Below, piece by piece: positions 162 to 5,731 of a stretch of DNA of 6,102 bases (the stretch's first letter is position 1; every line of letters begins with the position of its first letter). The notes under the pieces were generated by a model. That model saw nothing but the letters and a program-made list of their open reading frames with translations, was not told the DNA's origin and did no database searches. Position numbers and translations under genes: made by a program. Location of the stretch: the IMG/VR virus record IMGVR_UViG_3300045988_009452, positions 1 through 6,102 of that record; one strand, 5' to 3'. Origin of the DNA: a virus.

Positions 162-2078
162 TTACATAATTGGAATTTGTTTTGCACTCATTACTCTACG
201 GGCATTAATTCTGAATCCTATTTGAACCCAGAAGTCCTGATTGCTTAGTTCATTAGTTGCGAATGTTCCAGTGAATTCTTTCGGATTGATGTAGGTTGTT
301 GTATTCTCTATCTCTCCGTCTATTCCTACCGTGTAAATTCTGTTAAGACACATATAGCTTTCACTACCTCCTACTGCAAAGTTTCCATATGACTTATTAT
401 AGTTTGTCATGTAATTAATCCATGCTACGGTTTTTCCTACTGCTGCATTTTCGTTTGCATCTGCGTGCATCCATTTTTGCATAAGGTCTTGGTAACCTAT
501 TCCGTCTAATTGAGGCTTGTGCAGGTCGTCTAATGTGTCTAAGTCGTTGTCCCAGTCATTACCCTGCGAGTAGTCTACTCTTGGAGTAATGCTTGCCAGT
601 CCTATTATATAACACGGCTCGCTTACTTTGATTGTTACCGTACCCCCTTTAGGGTTGCTGTTGTAGCCTTTTCCTCCTAAACTACCTAGTGGTTCGTTGT
701 TGTTTATCTCTGTAGCTGATGTACTTACTACCTCTGAGAATTCAATTTCTCCGGATAATCCACCCTCGTAAACGGGTGTCTCTGCTCTAAAATAGTAGTC
801 TGTAGTCCATACCGTTTGAATCCATGATTTGTAGTCCCCACCTGATATCGCTATTCTGTTTAGTAAGTTGTAGACTTTTTCCGTTAAGTTTAATGTATCG
901 ATAGTAAATGAGCCTCCGCTTGTGTCGATAGCTGTTACTGCTGATATTCCGTTATCTCCGTCAACCCATTCTTTATCTACCCAGTTGTTAAATATGTCAC
1001 TGAAGTGTGTTTTTAACGGTAAACCGTATAAAGCTCCTGAACTATTGACTCTTGTTACCAATTTGTTCATGAAGTCTATCTTGCAATTACCGCCTTCTCC
1101 GATTACGTATTCCTGTTTCTTAACTGATAGGATTTCTTCTCTTAGATTGTCTATTTCTTCGAGTTTGATTGCTTCTAACCTTATTCCTGTGTTTGCTTCC
1201 AGACTAATTCCGCTTACCTTAATTGTTCCTTGGTCGTTGTTAACCGTTTCACTCCATCTGAATTTTGCTGAATTAGGGATAGTAACATATAGTTCACCGT
1301 TGATTGATTCTAGTTTAACTGCTGCTTCTGATAGTGTCAACTCGCCTTTGATAAACTCCATGTTTTGTTCTCCTACCCAGTCAACACATCTGAATGTTAT
1401 TGTTGAATTAGCTGGTACTATAGCGTCAGGCGCTATTTCTGTCCTTACCTTAAATGTATACTCTGAACCTGTTTGTCCGGTACTTATGCTTTGTGCTGCC
1501 CATAACAGACCCTCTTGATTTTGGTCTTCATCCCATACGTATATACTATTAGTTTCTACTTCATTGTTGATTATGTAGAAGTCTTTCTCTTGCTTGTTTG
1601 CGTAGTAATTCTTAAATATGTCGAATATTGCTAATGTTGGAACTGCATTTACTTTTTTCCCTTTTTTGAATTTTTTTACCCCTAGATAATTAAATATACT
1701 GCTGTTACTTGTTTTCGCATCTGAATTAAGAAGTAATTTTGGTAACTTCACCTTGCTCATATCTAGTCCTATGTTTAACGCGTTGTTGTGTAACATAGCA
1801 TTATATAGTCTTATCGGGCATGTGAATACATCCATCTGGAACTTATAGCTCCCAAATAATGGTCCCAGTGTTGGGTGTGTCATTATTTTTTCCGCTGATT
1901 CTATTGTAAACGTGTCTCCGGGTTCCGCTAGTATCTTTAAACATGGTACTAGTGTACCGATTCCCATACTACTCCTCCAGGCAAATGATAAATCGTGTGT
2001 ACTTCTTTCATATTCTCTTAGGGAAACCGACATTTTGTCGGAATCCCCTAATGTGTTTTTCCCTATGTTTACTTTCAT
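162..2078 (-). CDS. VP1: Major capsid protein, Microviridae F/VP1 family (638 aa)
   Basis: The N-terminal block STHDLSFAWRSSMGIGTLVPCLKILAEPGDTF, followed by GPLFGSYK and the CPIRLY region, is the signature of microvirus F/VP1 capsid proteins. The size fits the large-capsid non-phiX lineages. The start overlaps the upstream ORF stop as ATGA (2078-2075). Confidence 0.95.
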   Translation of the reverse strand: MKVNIGKNTLGDSDKMSVSLREYERSTHDLSFAWRSSMGIGTLVPCLKILAEPGDTFTIESAEKIMTHPTLGPLFGSYKFQMDVFTCPIRLYNAMLHNNALNIGLDMSKVKLPKLLLNSDAKTSNSSIFNYLGVKKFKKGKKVNAVPTLAIFDIFKNYYANKQEKDFYIINNEVETNSIYVWDEDQNQEGLLWAAQSISTGQTGSEYTFKVRTEIAPDAIVPANSTITFRCVDWVGEQNMEFIKGELTLSEAAVKLESINGELYVTIPNSAKFRWSETVNNDQGTIKVSGISLEANTGIRLEAIKLEEIDNLREEILSVKKQEYVIGEGGNCKIDFMNKLVTRVNSSGALYGLPLKTHFSDIFNNWVDKEWVDGDNGISAVTAIDTSGGSFTIDTLNLTEKVYNLLNRIAISGGDYKSWIQTVWTTDYYFRAETPVYEGGLSGEIEFSEVVSTSATEINNNEPLGSLGGKGYNSNPKGGTVTIKVSEPCYIIGLASITPRVDYSQGNDWDNDLDTLDDLHKPQLDGIGYQDLMQKWMHADANENAAVGKTVAWINYMTNYNKSYGNFAVGGSESYMCLNRIYTVGIDGEIENTTTYINPKEFTGTFATNELSNQDFWVQIGFRINARRVMSAKQIPIM

Positions 2079-2332
2079 TGCTCCTTGTCTTTAGTTGATA
2101 ATTCAATAGCCCTCCCGAATGCTCCTGCTACTATCTTGCACAATCGTTGAATTGTGATACTACTCAGGTTATCTATGAGTTCTTCCTTGGTTCCAAAGAA
2201 TCCGTCAGATACGAGCTGGTTTCCTACTGTTCCAAACCATACCTCATGTTCTTCGACTTTTCCTTTTCTCAGCATGATTATTCCAGCATATTGCTCTGTA
2301 TAATCCAGTCTTTCTTCTTTTTCTTCTTCCAT
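2075..2332 (-). CDS. Hypothetical protein, 85 aa
   Basis: Same strand as all the genes. Its start lies 1 nt after the stop of the 66-aa ORF, and its stop overlaps the VP1 start (ATGA), which suggests translational coupling. No recognisable motif. Confidence 0.55.
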   Translation of the reverse strand: MEEEKEERLDYTEQYAGIIMLRKGKVEEHEVWFGTVGNQLVSDGFFGTKEELIDNLSSITIQRLCKIVAGAFGRAIELSTKDKEQ

Positions 2333-2333
2333 G

Positions 2334-2534
2334 TCAATTCACCTTAAAGTTAAACATTGTACTGTCATTTTCTTGATTAGCGCTTGCATTCTGGTCTACT
2401 TTCTGCTCGCTGTTGCTGTTGTTTTTTTGAATGTTCAGGCTCACTACACATCCTCCAAGTGTTGCTGCCAATGCCCATGCCACTACTAGTAGCCTAATTA
2501 GTTTTCTTTCCTTGTCACTTTTAACATTCTCCAT
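2334..2534 (-). CDS. Small putative lipoprotein / membrane-targeted protein, 66 aa
   Basis: It has a charged N-region (MENVKSDKERKLIR), a hydrophobic core (LLVVAWALAATL) and a lipobox-like L-G-G-C with Cys at residue 29. The predicted mature part is 38 aa, polar and N/Q/S-rich. Confidence 0.6.
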   Translation of the reverse strand: MENVKSDKERKLIRLLVVAWALAATLGGCVVSLNIQKNNSNSEQKVDQNASANQENDSTMFNFKVN

Positions 2535-2674
2535 GACTTTTTATTCATTTCTGTTAAATACTTTCCTAACTCCTTGTAGCTTCCACAGGTAGTAGTTAAG
2601 GTTACCACCTGTCCTGTTTCTTCGTTAACGAATTCAATGTCAAATATAATAAATAATTTTGCTCCCTGTTCCAT
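2498..2674 (-). CDS. Hypothetical protein, 58 aa (below the ORF-track cutoff). It overlaps the start of the 66-aa ORF by 37 nt in another frame.
   Basis: Hand translation from the ATG at 2674: MEQGAKLFIIFDIEFVNEETGQVVTLTTTCGSYKELGKYLTEMNKKSWRMLKVTRKEN, stop TAA at 2500-2498. It fills an otherwise unexplained 150-nt gap in a packed operon, starting 12 nt after the 73-aa ORF stop. No homology evidence is available. Confidence 0.35.
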   Translation of the reverse strand: MEQGAKLFIIFDIEFVNEETGQVVTLTTTCGSYKELGKYLTEMNKKSWRMLKVTRKEN

Positions 2675-2686
2675 CTCGTTTATTTT

Positions 2687-2908
2687 TTATTTTTTTACGA
2701 CTTGACCCAATGTCCAGATTACTTCCCATTTTTTTCTCTTTTCTTCTATAACACCGCCTATATATTCATCGGGGAATAACTTTCTCATAGTCGCCACTGT
2801 TTCCAAAGCTATGCCTTGTCTGTAGAATCTTTCAACTATTACCTCATCCTTCATGATAATTGTAATTCTGTAATTCTGTCTTTTCTTGATGTTCGCTTTT
2901 TCTTCCAT
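2687..2908 (-). CDS. Hypothetical protein, 73 aa; first gene after the putative promoter
   Basis: Same strand, and the ATG lies 33 nt downstream of a TAnnTTTG motif. No recognisable motif in the protein. Confidence 0.55.
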   Translation of the reverse strand: MEEKANIKKRQNYRITIIMKDEVIVERFYRQGIALETVATMRKLFPDEYIGGVIEEKRKKWEVIWTLGQVVKK

Positions 2909-2941
2909 AACTGTAATATTAATTGGTTTATTTCTGTATTA

Positions 2942-2972
2942 CAAATATACGCATTTTTTTTCAAAACACAAA
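2942..2972 (-). promoter_or_regulatory. Candidate Bacteroidota-type promoter (-33 TTTG / -7 TAnnTTTG)
   Basis: The minus strand reads TTTG (2972-2969), then 19 nt, then TATATTTG (2949-2942). This matches the published Bacteroides sigma-AB consensus TTTG-N19-TAnnTTTG. It sits in the AT-rich region just upstream of the first ORF of the gene string. Confidence 0.4.
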
Positions 2973-3056
2973 ATTTTGAGCATTTTTTTACTATAATCAT
3001 ATAATATTTTTTCTATTAAAAATAAATCTATATATGATAATAATAGCCTGTTGAAA

Positions 3057-3158
3057 CTGTTCATAACTATGTTAATTCATTTATTTACAGTTATTTATCC
3101 TGTTCATAACTTTGTTCATAACTTTTCATTTATTTATTTGCATTGTTCATAACTTTTC
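3057..3158. repeat. Iteron cluster: 4 direct copies of TGTTCATAACT
   Basis: Copies at 3058-3068, 3101-3111, 3113-3123 and 3144-3154. The 15-mer TGTTCATAACTTTTC occurs at 3113-3127 and 3144-3158. TTCATTTATTTA occurs at 3076-3087 and 3125-3136. Confidence 0.85.
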
Positions 3159-3203
3159 TCCGATAGTAGAACATTTTAATATTCCAAATTTTAAGGCATT
3201 TTT

Positions 3204-3267
3204 TTATCAACAAGTTATCAACAGGTTTATTAACCGATTTTGATAGGTTATCAACAAGTTATCAACA
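3204..3267. repeat. Iteron cluster: 20-mer TTATCAACAAGTTATCAACA twice, giving 4 direct TTATCAACA boxes (DnaA-box-like)
   Basis: Boxes at 3204-3212, 3215-3223, 3248-3256 and 3259-3267. Spacing is 11 bp within a pair and 44 bp between pairs. An inverted half-site TTGATA lies at 3240-3245. The box differs at one position from the DnaA box TTATCCACA. Confidence 0.85.
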
Positions 3268-3269
3268 CC

Positions 3270-3470
3270 CACAAGGCGAATACTTGGAGCCTTGCACATA
3301 GTTGGCAGCGTGACAACTCGGGAGTGCTGTCCCGAGTAGCGAGCTAGCCTCGCGTAGTCACGTTAATAATCGCGGCCTATGGCCGCCTACCTTCTAGTCA
3401 CTCAAGGATGGCGAAGCTAGCGAAGCTTTCGAGACTTTCGAAGCTCTAGCCTTGCCTTGCGCATTCTGGC
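3270..3470. other. G+C-rich, hairpin-dense non-coding module A at and beyond the rep 3' end
   Basis: Helices seen: CAAGGC 3272-3277 with GCCTTG 3289-3294. A three-way junction has outer stem AGCGTGAC 3307-3314 with GTCACGTT 3357-3364 (one G:T). It encloses ACTCGGGA 3316-3323 with TCCCGAGT 3330-3337, and GCGAG 3339-3343 with CTCGC 3349-3353. GCGGCC tat GGCCGC lies at 3372-3386. CGAAGCT occurs 3 times (3412, 3421, 3439), with GCTAG 3416-3420 pairing CTAGC 3446-3450 inside the last rep codons. Hand-counted G+C is about 55 percent. Confidence 0.6.
3372..3386 (-). terminator. Possible weak intrinsic terminator after rep
   Basis: On the minus strand, GCGGCC-ATA-GGCCGC is followed by GAUUAUUAA, 30 nt past the rep stop. 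The stem is short and the U-tract poor. Confidence 0.25.
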
Positions 3471-4376
3471 CAACCTTTTCTTTTGCTTCTCTATTTCCCA
3501 TTGCACTGGATTTATTCTCCATACATTTTCGCTAATTCCTTGGTAGTAATTAGTTAAATTGGCCCATGTTTCTTCGTCATCCATCATTACTTTTTCGCCG
3601 CCTATATACCTGTAACCTCGCTCTTGTTTTTCAATCCATAGTTTTTCTTTTTCTTCATCTGTGTAGATGTAGTTCCTGTAGTATTGAGGTAATGGTATCT
3701 CTGTGCCGTTAGGCAGCTTGTAATTTTCATTAGTTTCGCATGGCACATATCTGTTCCTTCTTGCATTATAACTTTTCCAGTATTCTTTGCCTATACCTTT
3801 TGAAGCCATTACCTTACCTATGAATTCAGGGTTTTTTTCTGGCATCTTTAGCATGTACTTGGTGATGTAATTGATGGTCTTTTCATTGACATAGTCACCC
3901 TTGTACCAGTAACCGTACTTCCATAGTCTCAACAGTGAAGCATCTCCCCACAATATGCCGTGCATGTGTATTCTTTCGAAGTCTTCACCTAGTTCTGTTA
4001 TGAACCAGTATTTAGGATATTTCCCGTTGTTGTATTTTCTGTACAACTCCATGAAGTGCCGCAATGCATAATAGCACATCTGATTTTGTTCTTCGTAGTT
4101 TGGCTTTTTCTTTATTGCCAGCTTCTCACCTATATTATTAAGCCATTCATCTGAAAACGTGAATGTTACAAATGTTGCTGGAACTGTTGCATTCTTCATC
4201 TCTTCATTAAGCCTGATGCACCAGTTTCTTTTCTTTTCCTTACGGCATTCTATGCAGACACCACATGATGCTGGTACATACCTTAGCCTCTCGTCCGTGC
4301 AGACTGGAGGATTATAGTCATTTTTCTTGCTAGGTATATACTTTGGATTCAATATATATTTCGTATATAAACACAT
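3417..4376 (-). CDS. VP4: Replication initiation protein, HUH rolling-circle endonuclease (Microviridae VP4 / gpA-like), 319 aa
   Basis: RCR motif I FVTFTF, motif II HUH as IHMHGILW, and motif III tyrosine block YITKYMLK, plus the N-terminal Cys cluster CGVCIECRKEKKRNW typical of VP4. I place the start at the ATG at 4376 (MCLYTKYILNPKY), the usual VP4 N-terminus. The track ORF starts 13 codons further upstream. Confidence 0.93.
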   Translation of the reverse strand: MCLYTKYILNPKYIPSKKNDYNPPVCTDERLRYVPASCGVCIECRKEKKRNWCIRLNEEMKNATVPATFVTFTFSDEWLNNIGEKLAIKKKPNYEEQNQMCYYALRHFMELYRKYNNGKYPKYWFITELGEDFERIHMHGILWGDASLLRLWKYGYWYKGDYVNEKTINYITKYMLKMPEKNPEFIGKVMASKGIGKEYWKSYNARRNRYVPCETNENYKLPNGTEIPLPQYYRNYIYTDEEKEKLWIEKQERGYRYIGGEKVMMDDEETWANLTNYYQGISENVWRINPVQWEIEKQKKRLARMRKARLELRKSRKLR

Positions 4377-4390
4377 AATTATAAAATTTT

Positions 4391-4660
4391 GGTTATAAAT
4401 AATGAGAGGTCGCAACCTCCCTGCTTGGTTGTTACTCCTTCAGGTGGTTCGACCTCTCGTTGTTTATGACCCTAGCCGCGCGGCGATTGCGCGCCACATA
4501 GTAGCGAATTCTGCATAGCGCGTTAGGGATTGCAGGCGAGTATGCCCGTAGGGCATTTGTTTGAGCCGGAAAGCCCGACCCCTTTAGGGGTAACGCCCAA
4601 AATATAGTCACCCACGTATTCCGTGTGCGTATTATTGCGCGCGCGTTGATACGTGTGACA
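4391..4660. other. G+C-rich, hairpin-dense non-coding module B between VP2 and rep
   Basis: A 22-nt imperfect inverted repeat spans 4391-4412 and 4450-4471 (19 Watson-Crick plus 3 T:G on the plus strand; perfect 9-bp core GAGAGGTCG/CGACCTCTC). Other helices: GCGCG 4478-4482 with CGCGC 4490-4494; CTGCA 4511-4515 with TGCAG 4531-4535; ATGCCC gta GGGCAT 4542-4556; ACCCC ttta GGGGT 4578-4591. GTCAC-cc-ACGTAT 4607-4619 pairs with ATACGTGTGAC 4649-4659, enclosing CGTGTGCGT 4622-4630 paired with GCGCGCGCG 4637-4645. Hand-counted G+C is about 54 percent. Confidence 0.6.
4596..4659 (-). terminator. Possible intrinsic terminator/attenuator after VP2
   Basis: On the minus strand, an 11-bp bulged stem (4659-4649 with 4619-4607) begins 4 nt after the VP2 stop and is followed directly by UAUAUUUUGGG (4606-4596). 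The loop is large, so this is atypical. Confidence 0.35.
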
Positions 4661-4663
4661 AGT

Positions 4664-5731
4664 TTATTTCTTTGTGAAAAAGTACTTTATAATTCCAAGC
4701 AACAATTTGCTATATTTACTATCCGCTCCAAGCTCGTTAAGCAGGTCTCCGAACGCTTTATCATTCTTCAGGTTCCAGTCCATTTCTTCATACTTCTTGG
4801 TATTGACTTTGTAGCCGTCTGTTTCGCCTTTTACAATTTCTTCCAGATTGTTAAACAGTCCTACGATTTTGTTTTGTTCGAAATCCGCTTTGTCAAACTT
4901 CATTCCAAGCTCTTTGAGTTCTGTTTTTAGTCCTTGTAACTCTTTCATTCCGAACAATTGTTCGTATGTTAGTTTGGCTCCATTTTGCTGTATTTCTGCG
5001 GCATTTCTCTTTATGTCATTAATCCATACCTGAAACTCTGCTAATTTGTTTTCGTTTTTCAACTTGTTGATTTGTTCGTCTATCTGTTCATTTGTCTTCT
5101 TTAGGTTGTTGATTTCTTGTTCTGCTTTTCCCGTGTTGACCTTTGTCGCATTGTTAGCTAGGTTCTTGGCTATAAGATCCAAACCTGCGCTAGCCATGTC
5201 TGTCGTTACTTTCTTCATAGTATCTGCTTTGATTGAGTTAGTCTGCGCTTTAGTTAACTCTATCTGTGCCTTTTGTGCTTCTGCTTGCAGTGCTACTTGT
5301 ATTCCCATCGGTTGCATCGGTGTTACTGCCGGCATCTGTCCTCCTGATGATGTAGCAGCTGTTGAACTCCCGCCTGCTCCTCCGCCACCATATAGTAACG
5401 CTGGATTCAGTCCTGCTGCTTCGTACCTTTCCTTTTCTGCTGTTGGGTTGTTGTATTCGTTCTGCTTGTCAAACGTATAGTCATACATTTCCCTTGCTAG
5501 GTTTTGGTTATATGCTGCGGTCTGTTTGTTGTAGTCGAATTGAAGGCCCATTCTTGCAAGTTCAGCTTCGTTTTGTTTATTGAACATCTCTCTCCCATAT
5601 TCAAACGCTTCTTGTTGCATTTTCCTTTGTTGGCGTGCGTTAATTCCTTGTCCTATAAGGCCCATTCCTCCGCCTAATACACCGGATAATAGGTTTGAAC
5701 CGCCACCTTTTAAAAAATCTAGAAATCTCAT
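4664..5731 (-). CDS. VP2: Minor capsid / DNA pilot protein, Microviridae VP2 (gpH-like), 355 aa
   Basis: It has a Gly-rich N-terminus, the ERYEAAGLNPALLYGGGGAGG block characteristic of microvirus VP2 proteins, and a long coiled-coil-like Q/K/E/N-rich C-terminal half. Its position between capsid and rep also fits. Confidence 0.85.
   Translation of the reverse strand: MRFLDFLKGGGSNLLSGVLGGGMGLIGQGINARQQRKMQQEAFEYGREMFNKQNEAELARMGLQFDYNKQTAAYNQNLAREMYDYTFDKQNEYNNPTAEKERYEAAGLNPALLYGGGGAGGSSTAATSSGGQMPAVTPMQPMGIQVALQAEAQKAQIELTKAQTNSIKADTMKKVTTDMASAGLDLIAKNLANNATKVNTGKAEQEINNLKKTNEQIDEQINKLKNENKLAEFQVWINDIKRNAAEIQQNGAKLTYEQLFGMKELQGLKTELKELGMKFDKADFEQNKIVGLFNNLEEIVKGETDGYKVNTKKYEEMDWNLKNDKAFGDLLNELGADSKYSKLLLGIIKYFFTKK

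Follow-up and report, generated by a model that had tools for sequence, protein, structure and literature searches.

A folded, optional element beside rep, common to distant microviruses, is a candidate single-strand DNA initiation signal

Background

The 3' end of the replication initiator gene (rep) of a microvirus is followed by a short, G+C-rich and strongly folding segment, which raises the question of what such a segment does there. The DNA analysed, 6102 bases long (the window), is the whole circular genome of a small gut microvirus, with about 100 bases repeated between its ends, and all its genes run on the minus strand; the host of the phage probably belongs to the Bacteroidales. A preliminary description of the window had named a rolling-circle origin, a terminator or a single-strand origin as the roles expected of a structured element next to rep and the iterons. 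To our knowledge, complementary-strand origins have been defined experimentally only for a few coliphages; we know of nothing comparable for the abundant gut microviruses and of no priming signals in Bacteroidales.

Results

The rep gene of the window is flanked by two G+C-rich islands, which we call module A (about 3250-3450) and module B (about 4400-4650). The main features are the following.

162-2078, minus strand: major capsid gene
3196-3264: repeat array, GTTGATAAC four times on the minus strand, including two copies of AACTTGTTGATAA
3265-3409, both strands fold as DNA: module A core, a folded element of 145 nt (alignment, consensus fold, pair counts, models R1 and R2)
3410-3452, minus strand: end of rep and 9-nt repeat, with the basic tail RKARLELRKSRKLR, the stop codon at 3417-3419 and the repeat AGCTTCGCC
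3417-4376, minus strand: rep, VP4-type rolling-circle initiator (Pfam REP_ORF2-G2P)
4391-4660: module B, the second G+C-rich island, upstream of rep, with a 62-nt core at 4519-4580
4664-5731, minus strand: pilot-like gene

The likely start of rep is the ATG at 4376, and its relatives align from residues 7-14 onward. We detected a single Bacteroides-type promoter in the window, at 2972-2942 on the minus strand. G+C content in 100-nt windows is 0.52-0.58 over 3250-3449 against 0.17-0.26 over 2950-3249, which bears out the G+C-rich segment reported at the 3' end of rep; the abrupt border with the AT-rich iteron region, first placed near 3269, is real and lies at about 3265. A window-type phage genome of about 5.3 kb, partly missing, was also observed fused to bacterial DNA in contig L105 (1-55 and 5392-12617). 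Its junctions lie inside a truncated sodium:solute symporter gene, with CATT at each, and represent either an illegitimate integration or an assembly chimera.

The fold of module A is made up of three main parts and one tentative helix.

3266-3300: 3' hairpin, 6-bp core at 3272-3294, conserved 11-nt loop (TCCAAGTATTC on the minus strand)
3304-3391, minus strand: tentative closing helix GGTAG/CTGCC (3387-3391 with 3304-3308), predicted in the consensus fold
3309-3362: three-way junction, a 9-bp outer stem and two inner hairpins
3372-3386: GC-only 6-bp triloop hairpin, 4 of 6 pairs changed on both sides in the copy of contig L108

The GC triloop hairpin, the three-way junction and the 3272-3294 hairpin, all of which had been noticed from the sequence alone, were recovered in single-sequence folds. 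Compared with shuffled sequence, the fold has z-scores of -3.3 (RNA, minus strand), -4.0 (DNA, minus strand) and -4.6 (DNA, plus strand), and as DNA the two strands are equal in energy (-31.6 vs -31.5 kcal/mol). Searches of Rfam with the window and L108 (E up to 10) gave zero matches in module A, and ARAGORN found no tRNA or tmRNA. Neither a sigma-70-like promoter nor a -35/-10 pair was found within 3265-3409, and the module is bordered by neither terminal repeats nor a target duplication. The proposed role as a terminator found no footing either, since a hairpin followed by a T-run is absent from module A on both strands; terminator-like sites occur only in module B.

Pattern scans of viral and metagenome contigs yielded 13 distinct copies of module A after removal of duplicates, and a covariance model was built from the minus strand. 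The helices held up across these copies, with 98.7% of cells paired, a value that drops to 30-44% once the partners are slid. Compensatory changes on both sides were found in 13 of the 42 base pairs, most of the double changes being contributed by the diverged L108 copy, and none of 500 shuffles reached the observed values. In the outer stem of the junction (3309-3317 paired with 3354-3362) three pairs have double changes, and in the inner hairpin 3318-3335 four; the other inner hairpin (3339-3353, GCGAG-GCTAG-CTCGC) is invariant. The middle base in the triloop of the GC-only hairpin is free to vary (ATA, AAA, AGA, ACA). The tentative closing helix, which would surround both the GC hairpin and the junction, does not vary within the window family, has one mismatch in L108 and shows zero covariation. 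Between two clades the 129-nt core is 92% identical, whereas the preceding 600 nt of rep are only 59% identical.

The L108 copy has rewritten stems, including a replaced stem in the 3' hairpin, while its loops and linkers are identical to those of the window copy. The unchanged parts are GAAGG, TTATTAAC, the GCGAG-GCTAG-CTCGC hairpin, GCTGCCAAC and the loop TCCAAGTATTC. Compensatory stems together with identical loops indicate that the fold is real and that particular unpaired sequences matter. The fold of module A is under selection. Its ligand would be sequence-specific and other than Rep, given that the L108 loops are identical though the Rep of that phage barely aligns with the Rep of the window (E = 0.08).

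In window-type genomes, module A is always found between the rep stop and the repeat array, 0-40 nt past the stop on the sense strand, as a single copy at a constant place. Genomes that carry it have in common the basic Rep end MR(K/Q)ARL(K/R)(S/Y)RK(L/S)R, and between this tail and the core lie 0-4 copies of the 9-nt repeat. A comparison of Rep C-termini, suggested to separate protein from structure, showed the tail to be conserved as protein and the following repeat to be variable in number. The CGAAGCT x3 stretch was likewise correctly described as encoding the basic tail, but it belongs to no conserved structure: predicted folds of the stretch 3410-3470 differ between relatives. The plus, T-rich strand has GCGAAGC twice within the 9-nt repeat beside the core (3411-3417 and 3420-3426). 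This motif forms an exceptionally stable DNA mini-hairpin.

Searching viral contigs with Rep identified three close relatives of the window, one with module A (L002) and two without (L001 and L003). In the latter two, window positions ~3257-3452 are missing and about 28 nt stand in their place, and rep continues through the repeats (...RVNNSRKSVDNSTKSVNKPVNNLLIK). Both are nested among module-bearing genomes in the Rep tree, and every outgroup carries the module, so that its absence represents a loss. Module A is therefore dispensable, which excludes it as the Rep nick site. The repeat array, a putative Rep-binding or origin region, is retained in relatives without the module. Within the array, AACTTGTTGATAA (3204-3216 and 3248-3260, minus strand) resembles the phiX174 origin core CAACTTG|ATATTAATAAC, which makes it a candidate for the site nicked on the gene-sense strand; L001 and L003 retain the second copy.

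Most of the microviruses searched are without module A. Compared by BLAST with phage and plasmid collections, the module and the entire structured block of L108 had no match, and module A was found neither in the plasmid collection nor in the Bacteroides plasmid that has the module B core. Models R1 and R2 detected no copy in 64 + 12 bacterial genomes, and R2 gave nothing in 42 further microvirus loci, among them that of the Bacteroides plasmid. In 401 genomes from the order of the best Usp match, the invariant hairpin pattern was no more frequent than expected by chance. A scan of genome contigs for the GC hairpin pattern returned 79 matches, nearly all unrelated and mostly from G+C-rich taxa; of two checked with the model, L078 scored just 14.7 bits and L083 gave nothing. 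Judged by sequence comparison, module A is evidently a rare cassette, transferred between microviruses that are only distantly related.

The distant copy is on the Bacteroidaceae contig L108, where it is flanked by Bat, PAP2 and Usp genes; those relatives of Usp that have a source name come from Phocaeicola and Bacteroides. The insert is a microvirus prophage of 6.4 kb, and a strain with identical flanks (L111) shows the empty site. The prophage sits between usp and a tRNA cluster of a Phocaeicola-like chromosome. It is bounded by a 29-nt repeat within a dif-like site (ATTAAACATAA-TGCGGA-TTAT...; L123 4898-4926 and 11309-11337, L115 12168-12196), and integration at dif-like sites is known for Bacteroidetes microvirus proviruses (PMC3091885). 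The VP1 capsid protein of the prophage is 29% identical to that of the window over 171 aa. Module A lies between the last gene of the prophage and the attachment site, in a structured block of 420 nt and opposite to the gene strand; the block ends with a long hairpin and then a T-run on the same strand as the copy. Module A is absent from 29 relatives of the L108 phage and from its sister prophage L114. We also considered a host RNA gene as the source of the module and rejected it, since the L108 copy is inside the prophage and the empty site has nothing similar.

Silent sites were compared in all genes of the window (162-5731) and in L001-L019, L123, L129-L146 and L158-L165. At fourfold-degenerate sites the coding strand is 41-77% A in the window and all its Rep relatives (L001-L019), and 48-79% T in phiX174, Chp2, SpV4, the alpavirus-like lineage and the prophage lineage. 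The non-coding stretch 2909-3256 is also T-rich on the plus strand. The preference of single-stranded DNA phages for T-ending codons has been attributed to C-to-T deamination of the single-stranded genome (PMC3278643), and we infer that the T-rich strand is the packaged one. The cultured phage phiMH2K has an A-rich coding strand as well, so the skew is no proof of which strand is packaged; for the window lineage, the silent-site data support, without proving, packaging of the non-coding strand. The phiX174-like motif AACTTG...ATAA is found in the window repeats on the minus (gene-sense) strand, and L123 is without it, which makes the motif uninformative; a nick at this motif would make the gene-sense strand the one that is packaged.

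In the two lineages available, module A keeps one orientation with respect to the T-rich strand but not with respect to the genes. A role at the level of the message predicts a fixed orientation relative to the genes, which is not observed, as the prophage copy is opposite. The coupling of module direction to strand polarity favours a DNA-level, replication-linked role.

The same T-rich-strand rule is followed by the core of module B, which is present in unrelated microviruses and in Bacteroides uniformis plasmids and is opposite to the genes in five alpavirus-like contigs. With the core set as on the plus strand of the window, mar49 and ON840019 have their genes on the minus strand and are A-rich or A/G-rich; bajarodmic virus 65 has its genes on the plus strand and is T-rich, and mar63 is likewise, more weakly. 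We tentatively consider, as a doubtful reading, that the orientation of modules A and B marks the packaged strand, in which case the Rep clade of the window would consist of negative-sense microviruses that package the complement of their message. What is read would then be the folded plus-strand DNA of module A in the window; together with module B, module A would bracket rep, and priming, perhaps also rep expression, could begin directly on the incoming DNA.

Further observations concern module B itself. Its core (window 4519-4580; L124 4001-4062) is 87% identical to an intergenic stretch of the B. uniformis plasmids pBUN1 and NZ_CP072237, a few kb from traN and traM. Consensus folds of this core gave no clear preference for either strand. 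The 3' part is homologous between the window (4391-4500), L114 (7570-7690) and L108 (4030-4115). In this part a long hairpin (GAGAGGTC...GACCTCTCATTA) comes after a short GC hairpin, with A+T-rich sequence on either side, and the arrangement looks like a two-way terminator. In the prophages it begins directly after the stop codon of the last gene.

Discussion

We propose, as a candidate reading from sequence to which we give a probability of roughly 0.45, that module A is an accessory signal of the SSO/ssi kind for initiation on single-stranded DNA. Module A would be a folded single-strand DNA signal, optional and exchanged horizontally as a cassette, and its probable reader would be a host enzyme acting on the strand exposed in single-stranded form. 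There module A may start or assist complementary-strand synthesis, as do the SSO/ssi signals of rolling-circle plasmids and those of G4, phiX174 and M13. The ligand would be a host priming enzyme (primase, RNA polymerase or a PriA-type protein), and relatives without module A may use other signals, such as module B. Of the earlier expectation for an element beside rep and the iterons, the conserved structure is truly there and the single-strand origin fits best among the roles offered, while the nick origin and the terminator do not stand.

Rolling-circle plasmids have single-strand origins (ssoA, ssoU, ssoT and ssoW) that are non-coding, 150-200 nt long and rich in conserved intrastrand pairing. 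Located next to the double-strand origin and read by host enzymes, they pass as cassettes from one replicon to another unrelated one, and a replicon survives their loss. Module A has extensive conserved intrastrand pairing, is dispensable and cassette-like (lost in two close relatives and common to the window and a distant prophage), and adjoins the repeat array as these origins adjoin the double-strand origin. It differs in resembling none of the known ssi or SSO signals in sequence and in being carried by a phage rather than a plasmid. The RS_B and CS-6 elements of ssoA (TAGCGT/A in a terminal loop) do not have counterparts either: TAGCGA at 3337-3342 on the plus strand is part of stem and junction.

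The G4, St-1 and alpha3 origins and the PriA hairpin of phiX174 likewise bring stable hairpins together in a non-coding microvirus spacer. Mini-hairpin motifs of the GCGNAGC/GCGNNAGC type occur at the primase start sites of G4, St-1 and alpha3 (PMC13037366), and two GCGAAGC copies flank the module A core on the plus strand. However, the G4-type origins have three tandem hairpins where module A has a three-way junction and two hairpins, and the GCGAAGC copies here range in number from 0 to 4, overlapping the rep tail. The reekeekee- and roodoodoo-microviruses have conserved hairpins near rep with compensatory substitutions, which were proposed, without proof, as initiation sites for the negative strand (PMC9865509). 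Theirs are single or paired simple hairpins within one clade, whereas module A is a 145-nt multi-branch element, optional, common to very distant lineages and flipped relative to the genes. The Frpo and ssiD promoters of IncF and IncI plasmids are likewise folded signals on DNA that enters the cell single-stranded, and in L108 module A is accompanied by pieces of module B. Unlike Frpo, which is a long imperfect hairpin bearing -35 and -10 elements, module A is without promoter-like hexamers. What is new about module A is that it is multi-branched, has been deleted naturally, has passed between distant lineages and is coupled to strand polarity.

The main rival, which we consider rather improbable, is that module A is a structured RNA. 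For the window lineage this would mean a 3' untranslated end of the rep message that acts by stabilising it or binding protein, and for the prophage lineage part of an independent non-coding RNA of about 400 nt transcribed towards the end of the phage operon. The place of module A just past the rep stop on the sense strand in all window-type genomes agrees with this, and transcription from the promoter at 2972-2942 would put it last in a genome-length transcript. RNA energies are better for the gene-sense strand by 3 kcal/mol, and on that strand alignment positions 55/96, 113/148, 116/145 and 117/144 alternate between G.U and Watson-Crick pairs, which keeps an RNA reading alive; the long hairpin and T-run that close the L108 block are on the strand of the copy. 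The prophage module, however, is opposite to the genes and has no recognisable promoter, and an RNA role does not predict that orientation tracks strand composition. Terminator signature and Rfam family are both absent, close relatives live without the module, and complementary targets for the conserved 11-nt loop matched only at chance level in phage genomes.

A related but unlikely explanation is that host RNA polymerase makes an RNA on the incoming packaged strand from a single-strand promoter (module B or an equivalent), with module A as its folded end, serving as primer or first rep message. In both lineages G.U pairs favour the strand complementary to the T-rich one, and modules B and A bracket rep, as such an RNA would have it. 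The explanation nevertheless requires packaging of the template strand in the window lineage, promoter hexamers were not identified, and L108 is without the module B core.

We regard it as very unlikely that module A is a palindromic insertion, selfish or neutral, that does nothing for the phage. The patchy distribution and the insertion/deletion difference between close relatives would suit such an insertion, yet the module is far more conserved than the flanking coding sequence, combines invariant loops with compensatory changes, and occurs once per genome at a constant place with borders free of terminal repeats or target duplication. A viral-strand rolling-circle origin with the Rep nick site, as first envisaged from the closeness to rep and the repeat array, is highly improbable: L001 and L003 have deleted module A with rep and repeats intact, and it is common to phages whose Reps barely align. 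Equally improbable is an accessory part in a Xer/dif-type attachment site for integration, an idea that the L108 copy about 260 nt from the dif-like junction of an integrated microvirus might suggest, but no dif-like site of the 28-bp kind present at the L123 prophage ends, with two arms and a 6-bp spacer, was found in the window, and the related prophage L114, integrated at the same site, is without the module.

Conclusions

As a possible single-strand initiation signal, module A is a compact candidate with clear borders, and it can be compared with a diverged copy and with genomes that have lost it naturally. Because its orientation, like that of module B, follows the silent-site bias rather than the genes, the assumption that every microvirus packages the coding strand becomes testable. 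Our results suggest that phages exchange single-strand DNA signals with one another and that, for module B, this exchange extends to Bacteroides plasmids.
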